Assembly (NCBI GenBank): GCA_030141605.1
Contig: JAQGDQ010001208.1
Location: 1-55,451 of the forward strand
Direction: 5' to 3'
Length of the DNA stretch: 55,451 nucleotides
Source: Tubiluchus corallicola
Taxonomy: Eukaryota > Animalia > Priapulida
The translations under genes and the position numbers were made by a program. Under the pieces are notes generated by a model. The model did no database searches. It was not told where the DNA came from and saw only the letters and a program-made list of their open reading frames with translations. This document shows positions 2,402-55,451 of the stretch, piece by piece. How positions within the stretch are numbered: the stretch's first letter is position 1; each line of letters starts with the position of its first letter.

Positions 2402-2795
2402 CAGTGGCGGCTCGTAGTTAAAATTAGGGGGGGGGGTGCAGCTTCAGAAATGTTTTAGCTAAAATCCTAAACCAAAATATTTTGCTTGCGAATAGCGTAA
2501 ATAGCCACAATTTAAGAATATGCCAGTACATGGTTTTTAAGCTCGTGTCAGCCGACAAACGGTGTGAGCGACAGTACTTTCTCTACCTAGCAGCAAACGC
2601 TAGCAGGGCAACATACAGCGTTATCTGAAACATGGCCGCATGTGCACAACAGCCAAACACATCAGTGTGTTGGACTGTGAAACTACCCTCACACAGAATT
2701 AAAGAAGACTTATTATATTGAATATTATCGATAACATTGAGTGAAAATAGGGGGTGCTGCAGTTCCACAGTTCCTCGACACACGAGCCGCTACTG
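2402..2795. mobile_element. hAT-type MITE
   Basis: TIRs cagtggcggctcgt / acgagccgctactg; 8-bp TSD attaccat on both sides. Confidence 0.85.
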
Positions 2796-2992
2796 ATTAC
2801 CATACAGGAAAGGCAGCACACAGCCACAATAAAAGAGTAGTACATACATACATACTGTATTGTTTACAATTGTATGCAACAATTGACATTGTATGTAAAA
2901 ACTATTTAACATTGTACTTAGAAAATGATTGGGATGAAACAATTGATTTTGATGCATCATCGTCACAGATAACAAAAGATAGGAACTTACTT

Positions 2993-4048: not shown

Positions 4049-5133
4049 GAAATCTGAATCTTTCCGGAAGACCCTTTGGTGGTAATTTTGTACGATTGTG
4101 TCGTTGTAGATTGTGTGATTTGCAGTTGTTTGTGTTCTTTCATTGTTTATGTGTGATGATGATGTCATCTGAGATTAATAAACTAACATAGCCATAAAAT
4201 TGTCACACACAAAAAACTACGAATTGTAGAGTAAGACTTTTTACACCAATTCACAATTTACAATATATATATTAATAGGAAGTAATTTCTATATACAGGA
4301 TGATCCTATAGGCTACAGCCTGGGGCTCTTGAAGCTTGGGGGGGGGCTAAAACTTCCAAATATAAATTTTAGTCTAGCTGTTATAAAAAAATCTGTTTTT
4401 TCAATACAGGTTGTGTTAAAATATTTGATAATTTGGTTTGCAATAAATAATGAAATGGTGGCATTTCTCAAATATTTTTATTGACAAACAACAGACAGCT
4501 ATTCTAATTTATTTAAATAATTTGCAATAAGTATATTTCAAGCTATGTAAATGTCACTAAAATATGTCACAGGCAAAAGTATTCACGATGGGTGAGGCTG
4601 AGTTTTAGGGTCGCTTCATCTGAGGGGGGTCATAATTACGTTAGCTTAGGGGTCCCAAAGGGTTATAATCCGGCCCTGTATACGTGCAGATGTTCTCATT
4701 AACAAGTACATGTAATCTTAATTTTGCAAATTCATTAGGCAAGTGGGAAATGAGGCTGCACTTAAATGGCTTGTCACATTCACACATTCACACTTAAATG
4801 GTTTACCAAATTCCGTTTATTTGTCTCAGTTTCCAAATCATTTACCTAAGAATGTATTTTTTAAATAACTGACAAATATTTCAAAATAACTCGTATATAC
4901 AACAAACTGTTTCAAAAACAGACACACTATGCAAACTAGGACTAAAAATAATAAATTAAAATAGGCCCAATATACAAACGTACAAAGTTGGTATGGGTGG
5001 GGTGGGGTGGGGTGGAGAGTCGTGGGATCAGGTAGATGGGTTAATGATTAACCACACAAAGGATAGAATTAAACAACAGCAGCTAATGAAATGCAAAATC
5101 GCAGCAAAATAATTTAATGGTGAATTGTCTATT

Positions 5134-5560
5134 CACCGCACTAAACACAAATGGTTCCGCACACCGCACTAAACACAAATGGTTCCGCACACCGCACTAA
5201 ACACAAATGGTTCCGCACACCGCACTAAACAGAAATGGTTCCGCACACCACACTAAACACAAATGGTTCCGCACACCGCACTAAACACAAATGGTTCCGC
5301 ACACCGCACTAAACACAAATGGTTCCGCACACCGCACTAAACACAAATGGTTCCGCACACTGCACTAAACACAAATGGTTCCGCACACCGCACTAAACAC
5401 AAATGGTTCCGCACACCGCACTAAACAAATGGTTCCACACACCGCACTAAACACAAATGGTTCCGCACACCGCACTAAACACAAATGGTTCCGCACACCG
5501 CACTAAACACAAATGGTTCCGCACACCACACTAAACACAAATGGTTCCGCACACCGCACT
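5134..5560. repeat. 28-bp minisatellite, about 15 copies
   Basis: Unit accgcactaaacacaaatggttccgcac. Confidence 0.97.
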
Positions 5561-5774
5561 GCCATTAGGACCTTGGTGAATCAATTGTTGCTTAAACGGA
5601 TAAATTAATCATTAATTCAAAGTCATATTAAAATCACGTTTGCATCCAAAATTTTTCAAAAAATTTTTGTCAGCATTAACTCCTTCAGGACCACACCTCC
5701 CAAGTTAGATTTTACAAAAACTACGACTCTTCTGATGCCGTACGGGCGCAGACATAACTGATTACACATTAGGT

Positions 5775-6197
5775 CAGGGGTGTGCAAACTGCGGGCCACT
5801 TGCGGGCCGCCGACAGATCTTGTACGACCCGCAAAGAGGTTTGTCAACGTAATGAAAGTGCGGCCCACGCGATCCAGCTGAAGTGCACGCCAATATTGCA
5901 AAGATAGTGCGGGTAGTTTTTTCTTCTAGATCGGATGGCATCTAACCCTTACAAGACCGTTGTCACTTAATGTCACTGTCGGACATGACGAAATATATGA
6001 TTTTAATATAAATTTTAATAACTTCTAAAATAGTTCCAAGAGTGTAGTAGTGCAGTAGTAATGATGTACGCAAATCAAATGCAAAAAAAATCGTTATTAG
6101 GTCCTACTGTACTTGGCTCCTTGACCGAACTGCATCCCACAGGAATTGCGGGAATGTTTAATGTGGCCCAGCTAGTCAGATAATTTGCACACCCCTG
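5775..6197 (+). mobile_element. hAT-type MITE, family B copy 1
   Basis: TIRs caggggtgtgcaaa / tttgcacacccctg; 8-bp TSD cattaggt. Confidence 0.9.
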
Positions 6198-6756
6198 CAT
6201 TAGGTACTGTTCTATTCAGGAGAATCTCAGCTATCCAATCATGTTATTCGTTTAAACATTTATAAGTGATTTAATTGGATAAAATTAAGAAAAACACACT
6301 CTTTTCAGACACTCCAGCTTAGCCTATCGAGTAGCTTAGTCTGGTGCACACTTGCGTGATCGTACACATTATTTAATTGATTGCCTGCTTGCTACAGTCC
6401 AAGAGAACCATCTGCTGTACAGAGTTCCAGGAAAAACCAACCAATCAGGAAACTACAAATTAAGATCGTTTCATCTTTTAACAGAAATTTCTCTTTAAAA
6501 ATAGAGTAGAGTTGAGGCCAGAGTTTATCAGACTGTTGTGTCTAGATGGTTGAAATTTTCCGTACAAACTGATTTCACACAAGTGGTACTGTACTAATGT
6601 TACAGTTCAAAACAAGGTGTGCACGCACACGAGTTATGTGAGGCAAGAAAACGCACAATCATTAGGTAAATGCAGAAAAACTGGCCATGATAGCCCAGAA
6701 TGAGGGACGTGCGTAACAGAGCAGAAACTATTTTCACATTTAACTTGGGAACCTAC

Positions 6757-7292
6757 TGCACATTCCGCACAAGCTGAACTTACAGGTGCCGCACATTCCG
6801 CACAAGCTAGACTTACTGGTGCCGCACATTCCGCACAAGCTGAACTTACAGGTGCCGCACATTCTGCATAAGCTAGACTTACTGGTACTGCACATTCCGC
6901 ACAAGCTGAACTTACAGGTGCCGCACATTCTGCATAAGCTAGACTTACTGGTGCTGCACATTCCGCACAAGCTAGACTTACTGGTGCCGCACATTCAGCA
7001 CAAGCTAAACTTACAGGTGCCACACATTCTGCATAAGCTAGACTTACTGGTGCCGCACATTCCGCATAAGTTAGACTTACTGTTGCCGCACATTCCGTAT
7101 AAGTTAGACTTACTGGTGCCGCACATTCCGCATAAGTTAGACATACTGTTGCCGCAAATTCCGCATAAGTTAGACTTACTGTTGCCGCACATTCAGCACA
7201 AGCTAAACTTACTGGTGCCATACATTCCGCACAAGCTGAACTTACTGGTGCCGCACATGCCGCACAAGCTAGACTTACTGGTGCCGCACATT
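6757..7292. repeat. 33-bp minisatellite, about 16 copies (possibly within the PPP4R4 3' UTR)
   Basis: Unit gccgcacattccgcacaagctagacttactggt. Confidence 0.95.
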
Positions 7293-7626
7293 ACGGAGCA
7301 TGTCACAACAGAGGATAAGTATTGCAGCAACTGGCAAATTACAATCCTAAAAATATTTACAAACAACCACCCCCTTGTAACTTTTGAACCTTGTAACATA
7401 TTGTTTCAGCCAAGCTGTTAAAGGACAGCTCTTCTCTGGGTAGTTGGTGACTCGATTATCGTACAGAAAGCTTTCCCAAGGAACAGCAGAAATGCACAAA
7501 AACAGCATCCCATTTCTTTTCTCTGTTCTTCATAATCACCATGGAAACCGCAGCTGGGGGTCTGCATCTCAATAAAACTCTTAGTCCTTTAACAACTCGT
7601 TACGGATCTCTAGAGGTGCTTCATTG

Positions 7627-7654
7627 TCAAGATTTTCGAACAGGAACAGGTTTT
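7627..7654 (-). CDS. PPP4R4: PPP4R4 last coding exon (KPVPVRKS-stop), followed by 3' UTR of undetermined length
   Basis: ttgtttacag acceptor, phase 2, TGA at 7629-7627; basic C-terminus. Confidence 0.68.
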
Positions 7655-10600
7655 CTGTAAACAACAAAGAAAGAATTCAATGCACACGTCTTAAAGTAAA
7701 GATTGGCGCTATTGATATCTATTATACAAGACTATGGAAATAAACTGTAAAAAATAAGCTTGGAAGTGGTGCTGACAAGCCACGGGCATAAAAGCGTCTA
7801 GTTCCTTGCTGGATTACTGCTGTGTTTACCTGTCTGAAGGGCAGATTGTTTTTGTTTATTTTAGAATTCTGCTTGCCCAATGTTTGTAAACAACATGGTG
7901 GACATATCACAATGATGATGAGAAATAAATATATAAATGGGAAAAAATTGAAAACTAACATTAACTTAAAAGAAAACTGGACGATTGTTTAGACTCAATC
8001 TCATTTTAATAAAATGTCCAAAATGTACATTTTCTTGCCTATAAAAGTTAGCAAGACTAATATTTGAATAATTAATTTTGGAACCAAACACAGCTGTTGC
8101 TTACGTCACAAACTAACCACAATTTGCGCAATGGTATGCATCTTCCCTGCACATCAAGCACGTTTGCGTAAGCAAATATTGCTATGAGATGCTGATGTGA
8201 TGTCACGAAAATGAGCTCTACGTCACACTGACATAATAGCCGAAAACAGCAGTTCATGATCGTGCTTATCACTGTACCGCGCCTATTTGTCGACCACACG
8301 AATGTGTCAAGCAGGCGCCATTACCAGTCTTAGTAAATTCGAGTAGCTTTGAAAGTTTAACAGAATTTAACTATTTCAGCTAATTACTATTATTTGATTT
8401 TAGTTTTGATTTAAAAAAGCTGTTGCACTTTTCAATATTTTAGTTCACACTTTACTTTGAACCGATGTCTACAAAATCGTACGCTTTTCCTTTAATCAAA
8501 CAAGTTACGAATGTTTCCAGTACCTGATCATTGTTGGTATGTGGCTGTTGGTTGACTTTGCAGGAGACGTCGTATTGCCGTTCACTTGAGAATGGCTGCC
8601 GTCGTTTGCATTGCAGTGAGAAGCGACGTCCTTTTGTCTGAGGAGCATAGGAATCGGGGAGCCTTCCCTTACCGGATATTCTGGAATGTTAGCAGAAAGA
8701 TTAAGTCATAAGCTTTGCTGAAATTGGAAAGGTTTTGCAAAGAAGAAATGTTTGAATTCGAATCAGCTACTTGCCCAGACAGTTTAACGAATTTAAAGGA
8801 CAAGAAAAGGGTTACCTGAAGAAGTAGGTGTCAGAAGAATCGAATTAAAAAATTATATTACGTCACAGCAAATTTATGCATATGTCGTACTCGCGTTAAA
8901 AGATATTTTTGTTTGTTTTCATTTTAAATCTCCCGCAATACTGCTTCAATCGCGCCATTACATGACGTCACCTACACAAACTTAAATCAGGGGAAGAAAA
9001 GGAAATGTTAAATTATGTCCCAAGAAAACTTTCCATGCAAATCTACATTACTTAACATTTCGCTTACCTGCTGGAAAGACTTATGTAACTAGAAATAATA
9101 ATTTAAAATATTCATTCCTATCGGTAAAATGTTGCTGACTCACACTCTGACGCTACTCACTAACCAAAAACGTATTTTTAATCTTATTGAAAGATACAGT
9201 AATTTAAAATTTTACTTAATTAGCAACGTGTGCGCTACGAATGCTCTGATTATTTTTGCAAACTTCACGCAAAGTTATCTAAACTTGTTTCAATCCACCG
9301 ACCACTAAAATGGTTGCGCCTAACGGTCAGCGTTACTGCCGACGCAAGCCCTGCATGCAAAAGGGCAGAAAGTTTCAAACGAATTTTTTAAACTTTAATG
9401 TAAGTGAAGGGTTTTCTTGCATTTTAAGTAAATTATGCATACATAAAGAACTTCTTAGGTAGTTTGTCTAGTGAAAATTTAATACTTACAGTGAGTTATT
9501 AGCCTTTTGTTTATAAATGCAACACAATCACATTAATTATTTGTCTTAAAATGCATTTTGAAATTGAAATAGCATTATTGCTATAGTGATTGACTCATTT
9601 ACTGTAAATTGGCATGCAACTTGATGTACAAACACTGTAAAGTTTCGCCATCTGTTGGTGAACGTAAAAACTAAAACTAAAGTTAGCAAAAGTTTGCAAA
9701 GAAACAAAAAACGAGTTTGAATTATTTAAAAATTCAAAATAGGATTTTAGCAACACTTAATGACACAATCTGAAGTCATTTGGTGAGTTTAGCCTGATGT
9801 AGACAAGATTTGCAAAGTTCAATGGACTTTTGTGCTGCTAGTTTTCGTTGAAAATGAAAAAAAATTAGACAGAAAATAACAAGAGTTGTCACTTGACTTG
9901 TGAATTAGTGACCAAATCAGTAACTAGAGTTGCCACTTGACTTGTGAATTAGTGATCAAATCAGTAACTAGAGTTGCCACTTGACTTGTGAATTAGTGAT
10001 CAAATCAGTAACTAGAGTTGCCACTTGACTTGTGAATTAGTGATCAAATCAGTAACTAGAGTTGTCACTTGACTTGTGAATTAGTGATCAAATCAGTAAC
10101 TAGAGTTGCCACTTGACTTGTGAATTAGTGATCAAATCAGTAACTAGAGTTGCCACTTGACTTGTGAATTAGTGATCAAATCAGTAACTAGAGTTGCCAC
10201 TTGACTTGTGAATTAGTGATCAAATCAGTAACTAGAGTTGTCACTTGACTTGTGAATTAGTGATCAAATCAGTAACTAGAGTTGCCACTTGACTTGTGAA
10301 TTAGTGATCAAATCAGTAACTAGAGTTGCCACTTGACTTGTGAATTAGTGATCAAATCAGTAACTAGAGTTGCCACTTGACTTGTGAATTAGTGATCAAA
10401 TCAGTAACTAGAGTTGCCACTTGACTTGTGAATTAGTGATCAAATCAGTAACTAGAGTTGTCACTTGACTTGTGAATTAGTGATCAAATCAGTAACTAGA
10501 GTTGTCACTTGACTTGTGAATTAGTGATCAAATCAGTAACTAGAGTTGCCACTTGACTTGTGAATTAGTGATCAAATCAGTAACAAGAGTTGCCACTTGA

Positions 10601-11282
10601 CTTGTGAATTAGTGATCAAATCAGTAACTAGAGTTGTCACTTGACTTGTGAATTAGTGATCAAATCAGTAACTAGAGTTGTCACTTGACTTGTGAATTAG
10701 TGATCAAATCAGTAACAAGAGTTGCCACTTGACTTGTGAATTAGTGATCAAATCAGTAACTAGAGTTGCCACTTGACTTGTGAATTAGTGATCAAATCAG
10801 TAACTAGAGTTGCCACTTGACTTGTGAATTAGTGATCAAATCAGTAACAAGAGTTGCCACTTGACTTGTGAATTAGTGATCAAATCAGTAACAAGAGTTG
10901 CCACTTGACTTGTGAATGAGTGATCAAATCAGTAACTAGAGTTGCCACTTGACTTGTGAATTAGTGATCAAATCAGTAACTAGAGTTGCAACTTGACTTG
11001 TGAATTAGTGATCAAATCAGTAACAAGAGTTGCCACTTGACTTGTGAATTAGTGATCAAATCAGTAACAAGAGTTGCCACTTGACTTGTGAATTAGTGAT
11101 CAAATCAGTAACTAGAGTTGCCACTTGACTTGTGAATTAGTGATCAAATCAGTAACTAGAGTTGCAACTTGACTTGTGAATTAGTGATCAAATCAGTATC
11201 TAGAGTTGTCACTTGACTTGTGAATTAGTGATCAAATCAGTAACTAGAGTTGCAACTTGACTTGTGAATCAGCAACAGCAAA

Positions 11283-11313
<31 letters not shown>

Positions 11314-14300
11314 ACAACAACAACATCAGCAGCAGCAACAGCAGCACTGGCCGTGGCAACAATGACAAAAACAACAGAAGACAATATAATTAAATACAAA
11401 AACGTCAATATTTACCTGTAGTCGGACTAGTAGCCGGAGTCCCAGTGTGCGGTCGTGAAGCAATGCCGTTGCTACTAAGAGGCTGACGCGAGATCACTGC
11501 GGGAGATGGTATGCGACTTCCCATTGTTTTGCTGAATCATAAACATGCGAATTTGTTAGCAGACAGCCAGTACGGGATCCACGGTAACACTCAGACAAAT
11601 TTCTGATGGTCTCATTTATTAATTCATTATGAAATTAAATAACGAATGTTAAAGATTAATGCAATAACTCCATTGCGCTTTTTTCATCTTAGCATGTGAA
11701 CAGAGGTGCTGACAACATGGAAGGAAGACCAGAGAAACAGAATTAGAAAGTGTAGGAGGATTGACTCAAATTCAAAACAGATACAGTGTATATAAGTTGT
11801 ACAACTATGTAATAAGCTGCATAACTGTGTATATAAGTTGTACAACTATGTAATAAGCTGCATAACCATGTAATAAGCAGCACAACTGTGTATATAAGTT
11901 GTACAACTATGTAATAAGCTGCATAATTGTGTATATAAGCTGCATAACCATGTAATAAGCAGCACAACTGTGAAATAAGGTGCACAACTATTTAATAAGT
12001 TGCATAACTGTGTATGTAAGCTGCATAACTGTGTAATAAGCTGCATAACTGTGTATATAAGGGTCATAATTATGTATATAAGCTGCATAACTGTGTATAT
12101 AAGCTGAGTATTGTGTAAGAAGGTGCATAACTATGTACATAAACTGCATTACTGCGCATATAAGGAGCATAACTGTGTATGTAAGGTGCATTACTGTCTA
12201 TGTAAGCTGTATAACTATGTATATAAGCTGCGTAACTGTGTATATAAGCTGCATAACTGGTAGCAACATGGAAGCAAGGCACTCCTCAATCACAGAAAGC
12301 TTATTTTATTAAAAGACCAGAATCTTAATTTCGTCTCTTGGCAACGGTTCTCAACAACGAGTAACAACAATTTGAGAAGGCTGGAATAAGTGAGTGATAA
12401 TATTCTGCAAAATTTAGTTTCACAAATGCAGAAAACTAAAAATAACAGAGTCAATCTCATCTTGCCTCCCCCCCCCATCCCACTGATAGCCGTTGCGTGA
12501 CAGTGACTATAGCTTGCTATGGTGAAGTAAATATTTGCTTTAAGGTCTCGAATTTGCCTCATATTCGCCAGCTGGCACACCCTCAAAAAACGAAAATTAT
12601 TAACCGGATTCATGGGCATTGCGCTGGAATAAGAAAGAGGTGGAAATCAAAAGTTGTAATTCAGGAAACGAGCAAAAAAAGGAAAACAAACGAGAAAGGA
12701 AAAACAAAGGAAGAGCGAGAAATATTTCATCTCACATTTATTACTCAAAATAAGCATTAATAAATTACAAAAATGACCACTCCCGACTAAGCGGAAATTA
12801 GGAGTGAATTACTTCATTAGTTCCCGGGAACGTGACCTGATCATGGGTCGAGGAGACGCGGGTTGAGTGACAGCGAGTTGCTGCTTGGTGTTGTTGTTCA
12901 CCTTCGCATTGCTCAGGTTGTTATCCTTGTTCAATTTACCTGAAAAACATGCAAAAATACATTACCTGTACTTGAAAAAAGATACATAAATGCAGGTTAA
13001 TTACCTGTACTTGAAAAAAAGATGCATAAATGCAGGTTAATTACCTGTACTTGAAAAAACATACATAAATGCAGGTTAATTACCTGTACTTGAAAAAAAG
13101 ATGCATAAATGCAGGAAAGCAGGTTAATTACCCGTACTTGAAAAAAAGATACATAAATGCAGGTTAATTACCTGTACTTGAAAAAAGATACATAAATGCA
13201 GGTTAATTACTTGTACTTGAAAAAACATACATAAATGCAGGTTAATTACCTGTACTTGAAAAAAGATACATAAATGCAGGTTAATTACCTGTACTTGAAA
13301 AAACATACATAAATGCAGGTTAATTACCTGTACTTGAAAAAAAGATGCATAAATGCAGGTTAATTACCTGTACTTGAAAAAAAGATGCATAAATGCAGGT
13401 TAATTACCTGTACTTGAAAAAAAGATGCATAAAAGCAGGTTAATTACCCGTACTTGAAAAAAGATGCATAAATGCAGGTTAATTACCTGTACTTGAAAAA
13501 AGATACATAAATGCAGGTTAATTACCTGTACTTGAAGAAAGATGCATAAATGCAGGTTAATTACCTGTACTTGAAAAAAGATGCATAAATGCAGGTTAAT
13601 TACCCGTACTTGAAAAAAGATGCATAAATGCAGGTTAATTACCTGTACTTGAAAAAAAGATGCATAAATGCAGGTTAATTACCTGTACTTGAAAAAAGAT
13701 GCATAAATGCAGGTTAATTACCTGTACTTGAAAAAAGATACATAAATGCAGGTTAATTACCTGTACTTGAAAAAAAGATGCATAAATGCAGGTTAATTAC
13801 CTGTACTTGAAAAAAGATACATAAATGCAGGTTAATTACTTGTACTTGAAAAAAGATTCATAAATGCAGGTTAATTACCTGTACTTGAAAAAAGATGCAT
13901 AAATGCAGGTTAATTACCTGTACTTGAAAAAAAGATGCATAAATGCAGGTTAATTACCTGTACTTGAAAAAAAAGATGCATAGATGCAGGTTAATTACCT
14001 GTACTTGAAAAAAGATACATAAATGCAGGTTAATTACCTGTACTTGAAAAAAGATACATAAATGCAGGTTAATTACCTGTACTTGAAAAAAGATACATAA
14101 ATGCAGGTTAATTACCTGTACTTGAAAAAAAGATGCATAAATGCAGGTTAATTACCTGTACTTGAAAAAAGATGCATAAATGCAGGTTAATTACCTGTAC
14201 TTGAAAAAAGATGCATAAATGCAGGTTAATTACCTGTACTTGAAAAAAAGATGCATAAATGCAGGTTAATTACCTGTACTTGAAAAAAGATGCATAAATG

Positions 14301-17300
14301 CAGGTTAATTACCTGTACTTGAAAAAAAGATGCATAAATGCAGGTTAATTACCTGTGCTTTAAAAAACAGATGCAAAAATACAGGTAAATCACCCGTTCT
14401 TTAAAAAACTGATGCAAAAATACAGGTAAATCACTTGTACATTAAAAAATACAGGCGAATTACCTGTAGTTGAAAAAAATGCAAAAATACAGGTAAATCA
14501 CCCGTGCTTTAAAAAACCGATGCAAAAATACAGGTAAATCACTTGTACTTGAAAAAATACAGGCAAATTACCTGTGCTTAAAAAATGCAAAAATACAGGT
14601 AAATCACCTGTGCTTTAAAAAACAGATGCAAAAATACAGGTAAGTCACCTGTGCTACAAAAAACTGATGCAAAAATACAGATAAATTACCTGGTGCTATA
14701 AAAAACCGATGCAAAAATACAGGTAAATCACCTGTACTTGAAAAAAGATGTATGAATACGGGTAATTTCAAAAAGAATTGCTTACGTATATCAGTTAACA
14801 AACAAGGTTCATTACCACATGGGAGGAGAATGGGACATGTTCAGCATATAAATACTGAAGAATATCTCTCTTTATCTTCAGCAAACAGAAAATACTGAAT
14901 AGTATATTTTTACTACAATGTGCTCCCCCTCCCCACTGTTTGACAAGTTGTCTTTCACATCACATCAAATCCCAGCACATCACATCAAACCCCAGCACAT
15001 CACATCAAACCCCAGCACATCACATCAAGCCACAGCACATCACATCAAACCCCAGCACATCACATCAAACCCCAGCACATCACATCAAACCCCAGCACAT
15101 CACATCAAATCCCAGCACATCACATCAAACCCTAGCACATCACATCAAACCCCAGCACATCACATCAAACCCCAGCACATCACATCAAATCCCAGCACAT
15201 CACACCATACAACACATATATGTATGCATTTGCATATTAAAATCGTCCATAATTCGGCAGATAAGTTTTTCTAGTTATTCACATATCCTAAATCTCCATT
15301 TCTTAAGAATCATTTTGATACCAAGTTCATCACTCTATGTTATTTCTAAGCTGAGATAATCCACGTTGAAGTTGAGGTGCAGGCTGCGCACTAAAAAACA
15401 TAATCTTGAGAAAATTGCTGTTAAAGTCAGCCATTGTTTTGTTTGCTTCTCTACAAAACACTTAGCAACCGTACGAAATTGTGGTTGCTATGGGCTTTGC
15501 AAGATCCCATTGAAGTTACGTTTAAATCCAGTAGATGGCTCTTCCTCAGGAAGATCTGGGCTTGACAACAGAAAAAATCAGAAGCAAAATGACAGCTTCC
15601 AGGAGCTACAATAGGAGTTTGAAAATAGGAATTTTTTACAACAGCACTACCAGTTTTCAGCCAGAGAAGTGGGTACCGTGTTTTAAAATTAGATTTCTAG
15701 ATTTTTGAAAATTTTTTTGATGATTTGATGCTAGAAATAAAAGTGCATTATATACAGGGATGAGAATGACAAATTGCAAAAAAACTCTGAAACAGGCCGG
15801 GGGTTTGGGGACCGCATAAGCCTGTTCAAGGGGGCGAAGCAACAAATTGCAATTTTGTGATCATAGAGAGTCTCTAAGTGGACTTAAATATCAGTTACCT
15901 TGTTTCATGCATAATTTAAAATACCCAACTATCAAGGATACATGATACCTAATTGTCTCAAAAACGCCTAAGTACTGGCCGCTCCTATGCAAAAGTATAT
16001 AAAAACTGTCTGCAATTGGCTCAAATAACTCCGCACAATTGATTCTATATTTTTACACATAGAGATATACACGTGGTTACACTGATGTACGTGATGTAAA
16101 CGAAGTGACGGCCTGCCATCTAGCGGTCAGTTTGTGAAGTAATGTACTGGGTCCGTAAAAACTTTCTCAACGAATTTACGCAATTTACAAAAAATGGCAC
16201 TACTGGTCTTCCAGAAACTCGGAATTCCTCGTATCCACGGAAAATTCTCATCCCTGTTTATATGATGTCTGTTTTTATAAAAAGCAACAATAATTGAAAT
16301 TTGACCACATTTTTGGTGCATTCTACTTTGAAGCATCATAACGTAGTTTTAACTACGCCAACTATGGACGGTTTTGGTTTACAAGGTTCATGAAAACTAA
16401 ATGTATTTACAAAATCAGCTTCAACGCTTCACGCATTATCCTACCCTACACACAGGAAGCCATTCAAATTTACTAATTATTTCATATCTTACTAGTGAAC
16501 CGAACTGATGCATTAACTTACCTTTAGACGGCAGACGCTTGATGTCTTTTATTTGTGGAATATTTACTGAAAGAAAAAAAGGCAATTATCAACTTTAAAA
16601 CGACAGTTTTTCTTTTCAACTGATATGAAATTGCAGAACAAAGCCTTAACTATCAAATTCATATTAATTACAAGTGGAAAGCAAGTCACAGAAAGGATGT
16701 CTGCTACATGCAAAAAAGTGGATTTTAAACTACATAATAAAAGCTCAAGCTCGAACGCGTTTTTTTAATTCGAATTCGATTCAAATCTAAAATTATAGAT
16801 TCGAACGATTCAGCGCTTCAACCACACAGGTTCTTTTTTCGATGCCTACATTATAGCGTTCTCCACTATAGTGCATTCTGAGCCTTTAAATGAGCCCAAC
16901 TTCAGGCAGTGAAGACGGTTTTTCAACCCGTAAGTAATATGCAGAGACTGTCTACCTACCAATGCTTTTTCTCACAGGAATTTTCCCGGTTTTCGCATTG
17001 CTCGGATTGCGATTGAACTTTTTGTTCTGATCTTCTTGCATCTCCTTTGCTTCCTGTAAATATGGGGACATTTATTTCAGTGACTTCAAAAGAAGACAGG
17101 ATGATTTTTCATATACTACCCCATTTTCAAGTCCGACAAAATAAGTATACATTTTAACACAATTAATACTGCAAAAACGTTTCTGATTATTAAGTAACAG
17201 ATTAAAATCTTAATTAACGGCGGGCAAGCTCAACCATTTATGACGTCACAAACTAACATAATTTTCAACTGCACAAGCATTCCACGAGCGTGTTGCACAT

Positions 17301-47294: not shown

Positions 47295-47341
<47 letters not shown>

Positions 47342-47406: not shown

Positions 47407-50400
47407 TCTCTCTCCCTCTCTCTCACACACACACTCTCTCTCTGTCTCTCTCGTAAATTGCGTAATTTTATTTTTTCCGTATTTATTTTTTATTTTTCTA
47501 TTTCGTTTGGGGCCACCAAATTCACTTCGCCTAGGGCCTCCAATTACCTAAGGCCGGTCCTGAGTGTGAGACATAGTTTTAAAATGGTCAACTAAAGTGA
47601 AGAGCTGACTACCAGAATATTATTATTACAAACGCCAAGAGCACGGTACATAATTCACATTGAAATTTCAAGAAAATTGTTAGACTAAACAGTACTTAAA
47701 AGTAGTTCCCAGCAAGCATCTGTGAGTACCAATGAATACATAACAGCGCAGAACCGGGAAAGATCATTCATCTTCATCCAATACTGAAATAGGATGTTAG
47801 GTGTAAAAAAATACAAAAAAGCGAACGAAACGCGAATGGAAAATTGAACGGCTCAACATTCGGTTTTGAATTTGCTTACAGTTGTACCTGTTTATTGTTT
47901 ATTTTTGTCAGTTGTGCGTTTAAATTTATAGCTCAGTAAGTCAGTATAGGCCTTTTAATTATTTGCTAATTGTAAATAATTTCAATATTTGCTAATTGTA
48001 AATAATTTCAATATTTGCTAATTGTAAATAATTTCAATATTTGCTAATTGTAAATAATTTCAATATTTGCTAATTGTAAATAATTTCAATATTTGCTAAT
48101 TGTAAATAATTTCAATATTTGCCAATTGTAAATAATTTCAATATTTGCTAACTGTAAATAATTTCAATATTTGCCAATTGTAAATAATTTCAATATTTGC
48201 CAATTGTAAATAATTTCAATATTTGCCAATTGTAAATAATTTCAATATTTGCTAATTGTAAATAATTTCAATATTTGCTAATTGTAAATAATTTCAATAT
48301 TTGCTAATTGTAAATAATTTCAATATTTGCTAATTGTAAATAATTTCAATATTTGCTAATTGTAAATAATTTCAATATTTGCTAATTGTAAATAATTTCA
48401 ATATTTGCTAATTGTAAATAATTTCAATATTTGCCAATTGTAAATAATTTCAATATTTGCTAACTGTAAATAATTTCAATATTTGCCAATTGTAAATAAT
48501 TTCAATATTTGCTAATTGTAAATAATTTCAATATTTGCTAAGTGTAAATTATTTCAATATTTGCTAATTGTAAATAATTTCAATATTTGCTAAGTGTAAA
48601 TAATTTCAATATTTGCTAATTGTAAATAATTTCAATATTTGCCAATTGTAAATAATTTCAATATTTGCTAATTGTAAATAATTTCAATATTTGCTAATTG
48701 TAAATAATTTCAATATTTGCCAATTGTAAATAATTTCAATATTTGCTAATTGTAAATAATTTCAATATTTGCTAATTGTAAATAATTTCAATATTTGCCA
48801 ATTGTAAATAATTTCAATATTTGCTAATTGTAAATAATTTCAATATTTGCTAATTGTAAATAATTTCAATATTTGCTAATTGTAAATAATTTCAATATTT
48901 GCTAATTGTAAATAATTTCAATATTTGCTAATTGTAAATAATTTCAATATTTGCTAATTGTAAATAATTTCAATATTTGCTAATTGTAAATAATTTCAAC
49001 TGTTTCATAATAATTATGTTGTTAATAAACTGTGTAGTAAGTAATCTAGCAAACATAGTTATTTGCAGATGTGATTGTTCACGAATTACGTTAAAAAGAA
49101 AAAATATGTCCCTAAAAACTTTACACACAAAGTTATATTACTTATCATTACGCTTACCAGTCTAAAAGACTTATGTAACTAGTAAGAAAAATTCTGAGTA
49201 ATTCAAAGTGTTCACGGGTGGTAAAATGTCACTGACTTAGCTTCCCAGTGTGCACCACTGAATCACTAAAGAAGATATTCTTAATCTTATTGACAAGACA
49301 AAGTAATTAATACTTAGTTATTATAATTATTATTAAAAATATTTATTGAAAATTATACAATAAGCCCTCTATTTGCAGGGCACAAAAGTACAAAAATGTT
49401 AAATAAGTCTTTACACTATGTACATTAAATAAATTTCTTACTAAACAAGCTGACAATTTTGCATTACGGTTCACTTATTCTAAATATATATCCAATATTT
49501 ATAATCAATGTATCAATTTACTATAAGATCGTTTTGGGTTAGTTAGTGAAGTGTGCACTTTGAATGCTCCAATTATTCTTTTAAACTTTGCATAATGTTA
49601 TCCAAACTTGGTTCAAACGATTTATTGTTAAGATGGTTCAATTTAAAGGCCACTGCGGGAGGGCAACAGATTCTTTAATGTTCAGGTGTTACCCACTGAG
49701 TTTAGCTAAGATCAGAAGCATTCACAATGCATAGACATAGACATAGAACATTTATTTTCTCCAATTAGTTTAACGTCAAAAGTTTTTTAAATATTAAGTA
49801 ATTATAATCATGGAGCAGGGTAGGGAAGGACCATGGGGGCATCTAGTCTCCTGCCCTTTCTTATAAATAGATTAGTTATATTAAAAATTAACGGTGATGC
49901 TGCAGATAACAAAAACAAAAACAAATAAGAAAAAATAATAATAAAAACAGTATAAATGATACAAATTATCCAAAAAGAACTGAAAACAAAAAATAATAAA
50001 GTTAGATACCTAAATCTAAACAAAACAATACAATTATTCAGTAATTAGGATTATTAAATGTAGTAGTTTCAAATGGGGTCTTATTAACAGGGGAATTTGA
50101 CCAAGGTTAGTGAGTAAAGTTAACAACTGAGAGTATGGAAAGAAAAAATAAGTATCAAAAAAGTGTAATATAGAAAAATTTATGAGAAAAAGTAAGTATG
50201 AGAAAGAGCAACAATTACTTCAGAGATGAGGAAAAAAAAAGAAAAGAAAAAAAACATCTCGATGTTTAATTATATCCCACAGTGTAATCTAACTTAGTTA
50301 ATAAACCAGGACACTTTCAATGGCACATAATGCCCCTTGGGACTTCAGAGGTATGTTGGCTAACAGGGCACGTGCCAAAGGAGCCTGACGCCACGTTCAG

Positions 50401-53024
50401 CTGTCGGATAAAAAAACAAAAATTTGTCTCATAACGAGGCGCGATGATTAATCTTTGCGCCAAGAACGTAATCAGCGGTTTTGGGAATTTGGGCGAAAAA
50501 ATTCGGGCTTAATGGAAAAGCAATTGAACCGACGGAATGTTTACCATCAGCCGTATGGCTTACACGCCTGGGGATTAAACCTGATGGAAAGCAGACAACA
50601 GAGAATGAGGGTGAAGTGAAGCAGCCTTGTGTGACTCCGGCACGTGGAAAAAATGAAGTTGGGAAAGAGTTGAATGTAGGGCTCATTATTAGCATTAGAA
50701 AGATTGTATGTTTTGTTAATAATAATGCAGTAATATACCCACGGTAAGTAATATAAAGACGGCTATGCAATGTGTGTGTGTGCGCGCATGTGCGAGTGTT
50801 TGCGTATGTGTGTGTGCGTGTGCGCTTGTGTGTGCGCTTGTGTGTGTGTGTGCATGTGTTTGTGTGTGTGCATGTGTGTTTGTGTGTGTGTGCATGTGTG
50901 TTTGTGTGTGCATGTGTGTGTGTGCATGTGTGTTTGTGTGTGCATGTGCGTTTGTGTGTGCGTGTGCATGTGTGTTTGTGTTGTGTGTGTGTGTTTGTGT
51001 GGTGTGAAGTGTGTGTGTGTGTCCGTGCATGCGTGTGTGTTATATGATAAAACATATTTATTTAGCTAAACAAATTTAAACCTTCAATGAGAGTTTAGCT
51101 ATGCAAATCGGTGCTGTGTCATTGTACTAAGCATTTTGTTATAATTATGCCATGCAAACCATGGGGGTGGGGGGAGGGGGGAAACACGCAATAAGAATGA
51201 CGACGACACCTATGAAGACGCATAAACAAGATAACAATGCCAATTCTATAGAAAGCAATTTTATTATCTTTGGATGCGTGACACGATTACAAATGCACCC
51301 TTATTATAACTCCACGGAATAAATACCAGCCGACAATCCACAGAGACATATAGGGAGTTGATTGAATTTCCCAGCATCCCGTGCTGCCAGTGCAAACGGG
51401 ATGCTGAAGAAAATGACGGAGAAGGAAAGGAAAGGCAAGCTTTTGTTGCAGTGAGATAAATTCAGTCTTTGTCGGCACTTTCTTTACGCTGCAACGGGCA
51501 TAAATATCAGTTGGTTTGATTGCAACTTTTATGCTTAACAATAAAAGTGACGTTTATGAGTCACGTGGGGGAAGAATGCAATTCCCAAAAAAAGATCCCG
51601 GAAAACGGAATACATTACTAGCTGGCAAATTAAGCATATATATATTCTTGTGCTTCAGAAGTTTCGTTAAAGTTGTTGTAAGAAAGTGATTGGTATCAAG
51701 CAATTTAATCTAGCATTCTATAATTATTTGTTTTCTTTCCGCATTTTTACAAACATGCATTTCCTGAAAGTGTTTAAAACGAAGCCAGCCTTAGTCATGT
51801 GACCTAAGCTTTAGTAGTATACGCCACCTATCAATCACACTTGTTTTTACACGTAGTTACATTTTCTGTTGCCGCTATGCTGATCATGCCATTTGGTGAT
51901 ACTTGCATTGCTTTGTCTATTTTGTTACAATTTAACAGACACTAGTTGTATTTTCAAGCCAAAGTTGTCACCAGTAAATGTAAGTCACCATCTACTTTAA
52001 TAATTAGTTAATAGTTTAAATTGGTTAGAATTGTTTCAAATCTGTAGAATCATAAAGTAATAATTTGTGTTTCAGTCTTCTTAAATCTAACTTTTCATTT
52101 TGTCTAAATAGTAATAACCTTTAGCATGTTCTTAAGCACTTTTTGTGATCTGTTATTTTAATAAATTGCAGGTCTATCGCGCAGTTCAATACTGATTTTT
52201 GCCGTTTCTTTGCCTGGACTGGGCGCATCCACAGTGGTTTTTCCAGGCTGATTTTTCAGGAAGTTTACATGCAGACCACAGCAGTCAGCACGCCGCATTT
52301 GAAAACAGTGACTGGATTCTCTCATAAATTATTGCCTCCCTTATTTACTGATTATTTTTGTTTGAATGCTGAGATACATAATTACGGCACACGTTATAGA
52401 CTGAACTATCACTACATACAGTACAACACTAATGTTAGAAAATTTTCTATTAAATACAATGGCCCTTACATATGGAATTCAATTGCTCCAGCTATTAAAA
52501 ATGCCAACTCGCTGTCCATATTTAAAAAAAATTATAAATTAAACTTACTCGAAACATATAACTGATCACTAAATCATGATTTGTTGTTTTTCATTTTCAA
52601 AAACTTTCCCTCTAGTATAATAATATTTTTATTACTTCCCACCCGTATTCATATTTGTATATATTGTAATATTGTATCTGTATATATTGTAATTTTTTTC
52701 GTAACTAATTCTAGTGGCCTACCATAAGCTAGCTTCTTAGGTCTCTAGCGCAGAATTCATGAATTGTATCATATTTTTGTATTAACAAAAACTGATTATT
52801 GATGCACATGTAATGTACATGTATATGTTTATTGCGAAATGAATCTATTGAATCTAACAGGAAGTTTACATGCAGATCACAGCAGTCAAACAGTGACTGG
52901 ATTTTGATATACGTACCCGATGCCCCGAGCCACGGAGTCCAGTTGTTTGCACATGCACGCCCGCACCTCATAGTCCACATCCTGGCAGAGGGACTGAACT
53001 ATTGGCAGGATCTCTTTCTTTATT
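7627..53024 (-). CDS. PPP4R4: Serine/threonine-protein phosphatase 4 regulatory subunit 4-like gene (HEAT-repeat protein), 5'-partial; span of 18 minus-strand coding exons
   Basis: Manually spliced exons all have GT..AG boundaries and compatible phases. With the + strand exon at 54931-55037 they total 2205 nt (735 codons including TGA). Peptides such as IKKEILPIVQSLCQDVDYEVRACMCKQL, SILPELVELANDEEGAVRLAALETVV, LGKLCHGL, AYNFPA, NWRLHEEL and LPVRRAAARTLCVFLRNNRK match my recollection of vertebrate PPP4R4 in the correct order. Confidence 0.93.
8524..8680 (-). CDS. PPP4R4: PPP4R4 C-terminal tail exon (EYPVREGSPIPMLLRQKD...HIPTMIR)
   Basis: attccag acceptor, AG|gtactg donor, 157 nt, phase 1 to 2. 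Confidence 0.72.
8860..9420 (+). repeat. Dispersed repeat family C, copy (related copy about 32150-32760; more diverged pieces about 45170-45500 and 49100-49620)
   Basis: Shared blocks ttttaaatctcccgcaatactg, caggggaaga, cctgctggaaagacttatgtaactagaaat, aaacttcacgcaa. Confidence 0.75.
9878..11269. repeat. 44-bp minisatellite, about 31 copies, followed by a CAG/CAA tract to about 11345
   Basis: Unit agagttgccacttgacttgtgaattagtgatcaaatcagtaact. Confidence 0.97.
11416..11531 (-). CDS. PPP4R4: PPP4R4 C-terminal tail exon (KTMGSRIPSPAVISRQPLSSNGIASRPHTGTPATSPTT)
   Basis: attcag acceptor, G|gtaaat donor, 116 nt, phase 2 to 1; Ser/Pro/Thr-rich. Confidence 0.72.
11785..12258. repeat. Degenerate minisatellite, unit about 19-21 bp
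   Basis: Unit like gcataactgtgtatataagct. Confidence 0.9.
12837..12939 (-). CDS. PPP4R4: PPP4R4 C-terminal tail exon (GKLNKDNNLSNAKVNNNTKQQLAVTQPASPRPMI); donor may instead be at 12813
   Basis: tttttcag acceptor; two in-phase donors, AG|gtcacg and AA|gtaatt; open frame with GC-rich coding-like composition. Confidence 0.7.
12960..14750. repeat. 39-41-bp minisatellite abutting a PPP4R4 splice acceptor
   Basis: Unit aattacctgtacttgaaaaaa(a)gatgcataaatgcaggtt; diverged variant units after about 14350. Confidence 0.97.
14956..15205. repeat. 20-bp minisatellite, about 12 copies
   Basis: Unit cacatcacatcaaaccccag. Confidence 0.95.
16522..16566 (-). CDS. PPP4R4: PPP4R4 small exon (VNIPQIKDIKRLPSK)
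   Basis: tttttttctttcag acceptor, G|gtaagt donor, 45 nt, phase 1 to 1. Confidence 0.72.
16960..17053 (-). CDS. PPP4R4: PPP4R4 exon (EAKEMQEDQNKKFNRNPSNAKTGKIPVRKSI)
   Basis: tttacag acceptor, G|gtaggt donor, 94 nt, phase 0 to 1. Confidence 0.78.
17841..17918 (-). CDS. PPP4R4: PPP4R4 exon (ITKRKFLNEDADDRKKEDEEKMLLTL)
   Basis: ttcttcag acceptor, CTG|gtatga donor, 78 nt; charged coiled-coil-like segment. Confidence 0.85.
18053..18526. mobile_element. Possible MITE
   Basis: Termini tagggttcccac / gtgggaaccttg; internal ttccctgac repeats; no clear TSD. Confidence 0.45.
18816..19570 (+). mobile_element. TA-flanked TIR element with internal satellites, copy 1
   Basis: TA|taggttttacacgtcaaatgtagac ... 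gtctacatttgacatgtaaaaccta|TA; 40-bp internal array. Confidence 0.85.
19586..19627 (-). CDS. PPP4R4: PPP4R4 small exon (AIIELDQIEVPMKS)
   Basis: tttttag acceptor, TCG|gtaagt donor, 42 nt; resembles TVLELDRMEMSM as recalled. Confidence 0.85.
20596..20740 (-). CDS. PPP4R4: PPP4R4 exon (LRVCNTLPKLKSIMHLPEDRGFLQMLESCVR...DVTDAVRK)
   Basis: catag acceptor, AAG|gttggt donor, 145 nt, phase 2 to 0. Confidence 0.9.
21218..21365 (-). CDS. PPP4R4: PPP4R4 exon (DFCHHGSCHKRMLFIDFC...FSRGYFKQNFL...DAVPNIR)
   Basis: ttttccag acceptor, AG|gtaatt donor, 148 nt, phase 1 to 2. Confidence 0.92.
21392..21442 (+). mobile_element. Isolated non-LTR reverse transcriptase motif fragment
   Basis: ggc gct ccg cag ggc tca gtg ctg gga cct gtt ttg ttt gtc ctg tac = GAPQGSVLGPVLFVLY. 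Confidence 0.65.
23048..23237 (+). CDS. Nested carbohydrate sulfotransferase, coding exon 1 (short cytoplasmic tail plus type II transmembrane anchor)
   Basis: ATG at 23048 (alternative ATG at 23054), hydrophobic LQLIVIASIVMMLMI, G|gtgagt donor in phase 1 matching exon 2; strong upstream acceptor ttttctcgcag ending at 22906. Confidence 0.8.
23893..24359 (+). mobile_element. piggyBac-type MITE in the sulfotransferase intron
   Basis: TTAA|ccctttca ... tgaaaggg|TTAA. Confidence 0.8.
25228..25523. repeat. 34-bp minisatellite (about 7 copies) plus (CT)n
   Basis: Unit gcgaggggagtacaaatgcggtacgtaacctttt. Confidence 0.95.
25626..26551 (+). CDS. Nested carbohydrate sulfotransferase (Sulfotransfer_2 / CHST8-14, HNK-1ST family), catalytic exon 2
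   Basis: tttcttatttcag acceptor; 5'-PSB motif CSVPKTASTTWK, 3'-PB motif FVRNPFERLLSAFRDK, HW...LCNPC..YEYVG.FE, and C-terminal DFEMFDY; TAA at 26551; about 371 aa when spliced. Confidence 0.93.
26759..27100 (+). mobile_element. Truncated second copy of the piggyBac-type MITE
   Basis: ttaaccctttcagtcccaaa start and shared internal blocks with 23893-24359; no right TIR seen. Confidence 0.7.
27499..27604 (-). CDS. PPP4R4: PPP4R4 exon (RALPVRRAAARTLCVFLRNNRKLQQRESIRDRIIE)
   Basis: tcacag acceptor, G|gtacga donor, 106 nt, phase 0 to 1. Confidence 0.92.
27977..29040 (+). mobile_element. TA-flanked TIR element, copy 2 (core largely replaced by 42/60-bp and 40-bp arrays)
   Basis: Same TIRs; the arrays produce the spurious STFDLPKSHLNFPV ORF. 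Confidence 0.85.
29099..29287 (-). CDS. PPP4R4: PPP4R4 exon (LGDVCGVEL...NWRLHEELMTKL...SSDEIYTKF...SVS)
   Basis: gtgcag acceptor, AGC|gtaagt donor, 189 nt, phase 0 to 0. Confidence 0.9.
29729..29905 (-). CDS. PPP4R4: PPP4R4 exon (IAKILGQDVKLIIPQFLALLKDEYIDVVEG...STETL)
   Basis: ctgtag acceptor, TTG|gtatgt donor, 177 nt, phase 0 to 0. Confidence 0.9.
30451..31161 (-). mobile_element. TA-flanked TIR element, copy 3 (reverse orientation)
   Basis: Same TIRs; core is the reverse complement of the core in 44091-44594. Confidence 0.85.
31309..31804. mobile_element. Probable MITE
   Basis: Imperfect TIRs caggctgcataagattacggat / atccataatcttatgcgccctg; subterminal atccataaaataa repeats; TSD unclear. 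Confidence 0.55.
32150..32760 (+). repeat. Dispersed repeat family C, copy
   Basis: Colinear with 8860-9420. Confidence 0.75.
32848..33310 (-). mobile_element. Probable LINE 3' tail with a tandemly duplicated stem-loop segment
   Basis: Short gaactat tail repeats and aataaa on the minus strand; hairpin gtgagtgt..acactcac present twice (about 140 bp duplication). Confidence 0.45.
33640..33836. repeat. 33-bp minisatellite (6 copies) starting within 10 bp of a donor site
   Basis: Unit aataaataacgtgaatgatgatgccaagtcatc. Confidence 0.95.
33844..34044 (-). CDS. PPP4R4: PPP4R4 exon (VAEDPF...SAYNFPAFVLFVG...LCDDPAPGVRKSIAAGLHE)
   Basis: tagcag acceptor, GAG|gtataa donor, 201 nt, phase 0 to 0; missing from the ORF track in this frame. 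Confidence 0.92.
36770..36898 (+). repeat. A-rich dispersed repeat duplicated at about 50126-50253
   Basis: About 125 bp nearly identical (aaaaagtgtaatatagaaaaatttatgagaaaaagtaagtatgagaaagagcaac). Confidence 0.8.
36931..37490 (+). mobile_element. 5'-truncated L2/Crack-type LINE (ORF2 end plus 3' UTR), copy 1
   Basis: MYKFSHKLLPPLFTDYF...HNYGTR...FSIKYNGPYIWNSI; nearly identical to 52316-52858; this copy stops early at SIF*. Confidence 0.85.
37855..38447. repeat. 59-bp minisatellite, about 10 copies
   Basis: Unit tggtttaactttgtgatctgtattttactcaaaatcatagtctcatagtcaatccacat. Confidence 0.97.
39408..40066. repeat. 20-bp minisatellite, about 33 copies
   Basis: Unit cagtaa(g/c)aag(a/g)aaaagattg. 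Confidence 0.97.
40484..40900. repeat. About 83-bp tandem repeat, 5 copies
   Basis: Unit aagttcactttttcaaaatcgcatcttttgca...acaaatagcaaaac. Confidence 0.95.
40935..41050 (-). CDS. PPP4R4: PPP4R4 exon (VNLTQEQKDWFLQYYKQLCQLGL...DPRCQ)
   Basis: tgcag acceptor, CAG|gtaatt donor, 116 nt, phase 1 to 0. Confidence 0.9.
42254..43014. repeat. 64-65-bp minisatellite, about 12 copies
   Basis: Unit aacgatgaatggtcactgccccgccctttacaaagctcccccggtgcatctgtggtttacagcc. Confidence 0.97.
43486..43608 (-). CDS. PPP4R4: PPP4R4 exon (DTCIYIIIPLVRKICE...LGKLCHGLS)
   Basis: tttcag acceptor, G|gtagt donor, 123 nt, phase 1 to 1. Confidence 0.9.
44091..44594 (+). mobile_element. TA-flanked TIR element, copy 4 (shortest, least expanded)
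   Basis: Same TIRs; full core with only 1-2 units of each subterminal repeat. Confidence 0.85.
45601..45722 (-). CDS. PPP4R4: PPP4R4 exon (LESTKSSILPELVELANDEEGAVRLAALETVVHLLSLLDD)
   Basis: ttcag acceptor, G|gtgagt donor, 122 nt, phase 2 to 1; HEAT repeat. Confidence 0.93.
47186..47562. mobile_element. hAT-type MITE containing a (TC)n microsatellite
   Basis: Termini catggccggcc / ggccggtcctg; 8-bp TSD agtgtgag. Confidence 0.8.
47960..48999. repeat. AT-rich 26-bp minisatellite, about 40 copies
   Basis: Unit atttgctaattgtaaataatttcaat. Confidence 0.97.
50771..51040. repeat. Compound (TG)n microsatellite
   Basis: Interrupted tg runs with gcat and ttt interruptions. Confidence 0.95.
52316..52858 (+). 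mobile_element. 5'-truncated L2/Crack-type LINE, copy 2, with long flanking duplication
   Basis: Same peptide, open to ...KLNLLETYN*; flanked by duplicated caggaagtttacatgcaga..cagtgactggatt. Confidence 0.85.
52917..53024 (-). CDS. PPP4R4: PPP4R4 exon (IKKEILPIVQSLCQDVDYEVRACMCKQLDSVARGIG)
   Basis: ttcag acceptor, GG|gtacgt donor, 108 nt, phase 2 to 2; HEAT repeat. Confidence 0.92.
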
Positions 53025-53205
53025 CTGAAAAATGTCAGCTTGCATTAGTGGAGACATTTGGACATGAGTGAATGACCGACCGAATGAATGAAGGAATGTG
53101 TGAACGAATTGGTGCAAAATGGGTAAATGATTAGTATACAAAAACGGATGAATTACGGGGTCGGATTGTGTATGAATGAATAAGCGAACAAATAAATGCA
53201 TAAAC

Positions 53206-53705
53206 CAGGGGTGTGCAAATTGCGGCCCGTGGGCCACTTGCAGTCCATCGAGAGAATTTGTGCGGCCCGTGAAGAGATTTGTCGACCTAATGAAAGTGCG
53301 GCCCGGGCGATTAATTGAGTGTATCCAGCTAAAGTCCGTGCCACGATCCCAAAGATAGTGAGGGTAGTTTTTTCTACTAGATCGGATGCCATTAACCCTT
53401 ACAAGACGGTTGTAGCTTAATGTCACTGTACTACACAGACTGTGTGATACACATTACTAATATGCATTGTAATGAAATTACCACTATTTGTCCTGAAAGT
53501 AGAAATATATGGTTTGTAATATAAATTTTAATAACTTTTAAAATAGTTTCTTGAGTGTAGTAGTAATGATGTACGCAGGTCGGATGCAAAAAAATTATTA
53601 TTAGGCCTTTCTGTACTTGGCTCCTTGATCAAACTGCCTGTGGCACGCAGGAATTGTGGGAAAGTTTAATGTGGCCCGGCTAGTCAGATAATTTGCACAC
53701 TCCTG
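53206..53705 (+). mobile_element. hAT-type MITE, family B copy 2
   Basis: Same TIRs and internal sequence as 5775-6197; 8-bp TSD gcataaac. Confidence 0.9.
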
Positions 53706-54039
53706 GCATAAACAATTGGACAAATAAAAATTAAAGAAGCTAATAACAAATGAGTGAGTGAGTGAGTGACCAAATAACTAAAAAACAAATAAATGAATTA
53801 ATGAGCAGGCAAGGAAGCGAGTAAATAAGTAAAGAAAAAATAATCAACTAATTAAATATAAACAAATAAATAAAATTAATAAATGAACAATGAAGAATAA
53901 GAGAGAAGAAGAAGAAGAAAGAATAACCAGAGGACGTGAGTGTAGTACTGTTTGCTTCACAGCCCGGCATAGTGGTGTGTTTGGCCCTTATGCGCATGCG
54001 GCTATGCGCACATGTCTGAGATGGCATGCTGTATGCTGC

Positions 54040-54290
54040 ATTGTTAGGGTCTGCTGCTAGGTAGAGAAAGTACTGCCGCTCGCACAGTTTCTTGTCATGG
54101 TGTTTAAAAACCTGGTACTGGCGTATTCTTGAACTATGGCAATTTAAGCTATTCGTAAATAAATTTTTTTGTCAATTGCAAATCACAACATTAAAAATAC
54201 ATATGTTTGTCTCGCATTACACAGTATTAAAACAATGGCTAAAAATTTTCAGAAGGAGTACCCTCAGGAATTTTAACTACGAGCTGCCAC
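54040..54290 (-). mobile_element. Diverged inverted relative of the 2402-2795 MITE (partial)
   Basis: aattttaactacgagctgccacag is the near reverse complement of the 2402 terminus; internal gctaggtagagaaagtactg block is shared. Confidence 0.6.
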
Positions 54291-54930
54291 AGCAATCAAC
54301 AAACAACTAATAAGCCAACTGTATTGCATTTAGCTATAATTTTTCACACCAAAGTCACAACAATTAGCAAGAATGGGTTGTTTACTATGATGCAGCATCG
54401 ATTGAAGCCCATTAGTCTTTTACTACAAGCCTTTGCACGCGCACAGCAGCAAATATTGCAGGCTTCATTCAACCCCAGCCATCAATGAGCTGTGCATTCA
54501 AGCGTGAAAAACGTAAAATCGATAATCACTATGCACACCTGCCACAGGTAGATTCAGGTGAGGTTGATTGTTGTTTGCTGTCAGGTACAGGTACCTGGGG
54601 GGAAGTAATCGTGATAGAAATGAACGTGTTCAATGAGTTGTTTCTTTGTATTGAACCACATTGACATGCAGAAGTAGAGTTATCAGTTAAACAAAAACAG
54701 AGGATTGTGTAGAGTGATGAAATCCCGGTGCTGCTGCTGCTGAGATGAGATGATAAAGTACGAATGACAGACGAGAGGGAGGGAGGGAGAGGGAGAGGAA
54801 GAGAGAGATTGTTATTATTATTATAACTCTTTTATTAACCTCTTTTTGCACGTATACAATGAGAGAAAGAGAGAGAGACCCTTTTGCTAAGTACACAACT
54901 AAATCACATCAAACATTCATTGTGTTTCAG

Positions 54931-55037
54931 ATTCTGACTCTGGCAATATCCAAGGGGCAGATTTCTCAACCAGTGGAATCCCGCCTTTCATGCTGCAAAA
55001 TTCTGGGCAAAATCACCACCAAATTTGAGCCTTATTT
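54931..55037 (+). CDS. PPP4R4: PPP4R4 coding exon in inverted orientation (ILTLAISKGQISQPVESRLSCCKILGKITTKFEPY+TT)
   Basis: Acceptor tgtgtttcag|ATT and donor TT|gtaagt are on the + strand; 107 nt, phase 0 to phase 2. The peptide resembles PPP4R4 ILNPLVSKAQLSQTVQSRLVSCKILGKLTNKFDAH as recalled. TT plus the first base (A) of exon 53024 gives TTA and continues in frame. Confidence 0.88.
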
Positions 55038-55451
55038 GTAAGTTTGCATATTACTGGTCCTTGTTAAGAAGGTGAAAGTTGAGCTTTCTCACTTTTACAA
55101 ATCCCGTTTATTTTTCAAGAAATTTTTATTTGAGATTTCTTGTTGTGTAATTAGGACTAGATAAATTTTGAAAATGGATGTTTTTTGTGTTAATTTCATT
55201 TTTAATTTAAGTATTATCAAATCAAATAGTTCGAGATTTTTTAATTAGAATGTGTGATGAACCTATTTCCTGTTTTTAGCTAGTTTTTTTTATTGTTTAC
55301 CCTTTTATTTTTTCATTATTGTCCTCAACAGTTGTGATTGTCGTGATCGTCATTATCACCATAATCATCATTCTTGACATCATCCTCATCAACAGCAACA
55401 ACAGCAATATCATTTTTATCATCAAATCTCTCTCTCTCTCTCTTTCTCTCT

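Follow-up and report, generated by a model that had tools for sequence, protein, structure and literature searches.

The window (the whole stretch of DNA analyzed here, 55,451 nt without any N) contains most of a PPP4R4 gene. As a reference for residue numbering we used a protein of 866 amino acids (P0001), encoded on a 2,747-nt Logan contig that was found by a search with the plus-strand exon described below. Its best named match was a PP4R4-like protein of Priapulus caudatus (58% over 99%), and its named relatives, among the 120 matches listed, were mostly PPP4R4; the source is thus likely a priapulan or an animal close to this group. Domains PF02985, PF13646, and PF22646 were identified in it, and PP2A A chains were matched with an E value of 5e-26. 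Based on the full-length matches to PPP4R4 and the HEAT repeats related to those of PP2A-A, the protein is classified as a predicted PPP4R4 orthologue.

Seventeen exons of this gene were placed by tblastn on the minus strand between positions 8524 and 53024, all of them with AG/GT ends and covering residues 167 to 864 of P0001. A preliminary description of this DNA had counted 18 downstream exons on the minus strand; the strand was right, but the count was not reproduced, and the exon encoding the last two residues may be the eighteenth. For this last exon, with its stop codon, no placement was found within positions 1 to 8523. The exon closest to the right end of the window (52917..53024, minus) encodes residues 167 to 202, starts in phase 2, and matches HEAT by itself with a score under the curated Pfam cutoff. 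No exon for residues 1 to 130 was detected in the window, the best E value being 4.9 with P0001 and 0.006, over one stretch of 42%, with a protein of P. caudatus (P0002). Thus, nothing upstream of the plus-strand exon lies on its own strand.

The introns between 2993 and 48999 carry many long minisatellites, such as a 41-mer repeated 26 times (2993-4049), a 44-mer repeated 32 times (9877-11269), a 39-mer repeated 40 times (12961-14557), and a 26-mer repeated 40 times (47960-48999). A family of 40- to 42-nt repeats is dispersed in both orientations at 18.8 to 19.6, 28 to 31, and 44 kb. Two high-copy elements are found to the right of the minus-strand exon at 53024. The first (53194-53717) is noncoding, has 28-nt terminal inverted repeats and very high depth in 4/4 public runs, and looks like a miniature DNA transposon, with ends that we take to be hAT-like. 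In the second (53925-54312), positions 53956-54171 match 2473-2681 in reverse with 75% identity.

The remaining piece of the gene is on the other strand. An intact internal exon of 107 nt (54931..55037, plus) with an acceptor tttcag and a donor gtaagt runs from phase 0 to phase 2, and its end joins the exon at 53024 exactly in phase (TT+A = Leu); length, splice sites, and joining phase had been described before and were confirmed here. The assignment of its peptide to PPP4R4 was also borne out, since its reading of 36 codons was identical to residues 131 to 166 of P0001 at 36/36 positions (tblastn, E value of 6e-21) and to the P. caudatus protein P0002 at 32/36. In Pfam, the 36 amino acids alone had no match. 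A second copy of the exon was not found in the window on either strand (next tblastn E value of 0.08, next blastn match of 25 nt), in agreement with the earlier statement that no minus-strand copy is visible between 53025 and the end of the window.

When the plus-strand exon was spliced in silico to the 17 minus-strand exons at their AG/GT ends, an open frame of 734 codons with 0 stops was obtained, whose product was identical to P0001 at 670/734 residues (91%); the junction from 40928 to 34040 is probably a few codons off in this joining, leaving the frame unaffected. Direct joining of an upstream phase-0 donor to 53024, on the other hand, gave a stop after 18 codons. The view that skipping this exon would shift the frame of an otherwise lesion-free gene therefore holds. 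Among homologues, the exon segment was present, with the next segment directly after it, in 118/119. Since it is unchanged with respect to a 91%-identical relative and kept in nearly all of these homologues, comparison at the protein level identifies the flipped exon as an old, constitutive internal exon and as the working one. A metagenome scan gave, from 404 pattern matches, one locus (L001) in which a 107-nt exon with the same boundaries appears at positions 1255-1361. It belongs to a marine metagenome contig with a bivalve-like PPP4R4 exon (94% to Mercenaria P0051 over 35 residues) and, as its 1,841 nt contain no neighboring exon, it does not show the orientation.

The flipped exon lies within the final 590 bases of the window, in a terminal block (54861..55451, plus) that comprises the exon with 52 nt of upstream and about 390 nt of downstream intron, and that is likely inverted with respect to the genome. 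On the left, the block starts with a GA microsatellite (54861..54878, plus), which is the likely site of a false join and is 100% complementary over 18 nt to positions 55433-55450. This right arm is contained in a TC microsatellite (55427..55451, plus), inside which the window ends, one base past the arm; the complementarity does not include this final base, 55451. The preliminary description had taken 54861 as the start of its feature, which is precisely the left arm, although the inverted pair is absent from its text. Given that the 18-nt motif is common, appearing also at 47302 and 47324, the pair proves little alone and was rejected as stand-alone evidence. It counts because it bounds the reversed piece and because the sequence stops there. 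The intron following the donor is T-rich on the plus strand (AT skew of -0.22, compared to a gene body average of +0.07), with values as low in only 1/119 gene-body stretches of equal size. This is a weak sign that intronic DNA was reversed along with the exon, bearing in mind that transcription of the plus strand would give the same skew. Immediately left of the junction, 28 nt (54833..54860, no strand assigned) look like part of a dispersed repeat and were represented by a 31-nt contig (depth of 36) in X4, a run without cover of the unique stretches.

To examine this junction in independent DNA, we used four public runs that contain the stretch as contigs, three from one sample (S1) and one from another (S2), none of them on record as RNA. 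Substitutions and indels with respect to the window were present in all four (10 substitutions in 1,611 nt, or 0.6%, in run X1), so the runs do not represent its haplotype. Positions 54560-55451 were compared with 17 contig records, which had been filtered, with the repeats at 54765-54832 and 55421-55451 masked; because of the second mask, the right TC microsatellite is crossed by no listed contig. The left GA tract was crossed from the exon side by two contigs, both from S1 (runs X1 and X3), and 2/2 depart into other DNA whereas 0 bridge the junction of the window. The contig from X3 (record 13, 264 nt, depth of 5) fits 54860-55088 and then continues leftward with 31 letters unlike the window, which include a 17-nt motif that the window lacks even when three mismatches are allowed. 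The one from X1 (record 3, 50 nt, depth of 53) has, left of 54869, 20 letters of the same kind, and is the graph neighbor, with a 30-nt overlap, of a 455-nt contig covering the exon. Both loose ends are G-rich and then enter a GT repeat, with slight differences between them, and look like two alleles of S1.

The 455-nt contig of X1 corresponds to 54869-55323 with a single difference, and its depth (135.5) is close to that of the unique flanks (119.1 and 134.6; a third flank, which starts in a repeat, reached 214.7), so the exon is not doubled. Among the records listed for 54560-55451, no joint was found. Depth bookkeeping over a wider stretch, crowded by high-copy elements, indicated that, beyond these records, 54847-54935 holds one 18-base piece per run and 54758-54846 nothing; since such a piece is too short for bridging, no hidden record spans the junction. 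The piece over 54867 in X1, X2, and X3 had been considered as a hidden junction and was discarded, as it was too short and vanished in a narrower comparison. It has single-copy depth (129.7 in X1, 23.3 in X2, and 5.9 in X3), may come from any repeat-junction contig with the common GA motif, and was given no weight. From S2, no listed contig lies over the GA tract. The other junction to be expected, from the left flank to the right end of the block, was not seen in this masked, filtered, and poorly covered region, where no S1 contig falls on 54697-54859 and none bridges 55323-55451. In X2, the depth was 4 to 5 on the block (54958-55314) and 18 to 24 on the flanks, a type of dip that filtered records can cause and that was given no weight.

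The departure of the S1 contigs exactly at the GA tract is what a misassembly, or else an inversion or duplicate private to the sequenced animal, would predict, and not what is expected from an exon whose opposite-strand position is common to the whole species. This supports the earlier ranking, in which assembly error, inversion, and duplication were placed before any functional arrangement. Together with the lack of any bridging contig and the undoubled depth, it indicates that the terminal block most likely runs the other way round. The flip is real in the assembled sequence, but most likely it is not real in the animal, where the exon would likely share the strand of the others and be spliced normally. 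We thus consider it likely that it represents a sequencing or assembly error, a chimeric read or a misjoin, at the GA microsatellite. The two features expected of such an error were observed: a brief stretch of common sequence where the join occurs, as the GA tract belongs to the exon side in X3, and a junction absent from independent DNA in S1, although a private allele would behave in the same way in this second respect.

An error of this type could have arisen in a few steps. The sequence left of 54860 would terminate in a separate GA tract, from which a read or an overlap would switch to a look-alike GA tract just upstream of the acceptor of the exon, then read back along the other strand through the exon, and stop at the TC tract, so that the end of the window would be the end of its contig. 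The two look-alike tracts would be ca. 0.6 kb apart or slightly more. The likeliest agent would be a single inverted chimeric long read that determined the consensus where cover was thin, at the end of the contig; a short contig misjoined through the repeat would have the same appearance. At the end of a contig, one inverted chimeric read is able to fix the consensus. That long reads are behind the assembly is suggested by tandem arrays that reach 1.6 kb and are assembled without gaps.

Nevertheless, the positive evidence at the junction comes from S1, whose haplotype is unlike that of the window, and a real private rearrangement would look identical. One such possibility, which we regard as unlikely, is a real small inversion between the microsatellite arms, private or polymorphic, in which the exon would be lost from the transcript, resulting in a frameshifted null allele. 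The inverted 18-nt arms that bound the block, the accuracy of its sequence (1 difference in 455 with respect to X1), and the fact that the four runs carry haplotypes other than that of the window agree with it, and heterozygosity would also break a contig at the block. However, the window junction is in neither of the S1 continuations, loss of the exon would close the frame after 18 codons in a gene free of other lesions, and the window does not proceed past the far arm into the upstream intron found in the S1 contigs. If true, this would be a modest example of a null allele bounded by microsatellites. Quite improbable is that the exon and its flanks were recently duplicated in inverted form and that the working copy is located past 55451. 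The window does end before a second copy could appear, but the exon has undoubled depth and a single contig over it in X1, the window junction is on no contig, and a spare copy unchanged with respect to P0001 would have to be very young.

We give very little credit to the idea that the whole species carries this exon on the opposite strand, under its own promoter, and that two trans-splicing steps bring it into the mRNA. Its splice sites are intact and in the correct phase, opposite-strand exons of mod(mdg4) in Drosophila are described as trans-spliced (PMC13490949), and the S1 loose ends have purine-rich words of 6 and 11 nt in common, by eye, with 54762-54790, which leaves room for a colinear allele. 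However, a normal exon that had been flipped would equally show intact sites and phase, and upstream exons are absent from the plus strand. Furthermore, 2/2 crossing contigs depart at the GA tract, in contrast to 0.6% substitutions elsewhere, and their ends lack ca. 70 nt of the left flank of the window. A colinear allele with a heavily remodeled microsatellite is unlikely, because these ca. 70 nt would have to be lost, a GT repeat gained, and several bases substituted, all within 30 nt. An internal exon would also need two trans steps, while the common exons of mod(mdg4) join one terminal exon. Equally remote is the broader proposition that this lineage carries a conserved internal exon in opposite orientation, or that the exon flips between the arms in some cells or individuals, and that it is nevertheless kept in the mRNA, for which double trans-splicing or a reversible inversion of the exon would be needed. 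A new arrangement would indeed result if one internal exon were trans-spliced twice, yet our data point in the other direction.

The error at the GA microsatellite would matter only for curation: it would make the gene model appear split or frameshifted, and the final 590 bases would have to be turned around or removed. Known library artefacts can produce comparable structures. For whole-genome amplification, the artefact presented as commonest is the inverted chimera that has a short overlap and joins sequences less than 10 kb apart (PMC9984789), and nanopore ligation libraries are reported to contain 0.18 to 7.33% of inverted chimeric reads (PMC13141652). As a counterpoint, two assemblies from amplified DNA are described with only one suspect chimeric contig (PMC11660948), so, as far as that account goes, assembly errors of this kind are not the rule. 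Among the listed papers on PPP4R4 inversion, misassembly, and chimeric reads at contig ends, no report of this case was found.

Compared with the inverted chimeras of multiple displacement amplification, as outlined in PMC9984789 and PMC11660948, our junction is similar in that a short common sequence connects nearby stretches (<10 kb) of opposite orientation and that the arrangement was seen in one sample only. It differs in its 18-nt microsatellite, as the usual overlap in those summaries is 5 to 8 nt, and the DNA of the window may have been amplified or not. The inverted-repeat chimeric reads of nanopore ligation libraries, introduced in PMC13141652 as a known source of false structural variants, share with it the change of strand and the reading back along the same chromosome. 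In contrast to these, the block repeats nothing in the window, which implies that the switch went forward to new sequence, and the platform may be other than nanopore.

Among functional systems, the parallel drawn in the preliminary description was mod(mdg4). As presented in PMC13490949, this gene has many alternative 3' exons, some of them encoded on the opposite strand, and its common exons are spliced to one of these; the clusters of 3' exons have their own promoters and require one trans step. The two cases have in common that the coding exons of a gene are distributed over both strands, but the fit is otherwise poor. In our case there is one constitutive internal exon (residues 131 to 166 of 866, with a donor) at the end of a sequence, instead of terminal 3' exons reached by a single trans step. 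Nor does the opposite strand appear as the normal state of the species, since the arrangement is not found in another sample: in S1, 2/2 contigs depart and 0 bridge, with poor cover of the left flank. Finally, PPP4R4 itself (serine/threonine-protein phosphatase 4 regulatory subunit 4, a HEAT-repeat scaffold) is the name of nearly all the named matches of P0001, and compared with known members the protein is ordinary, its sole oddity being the orientation of one exon in this assembly.
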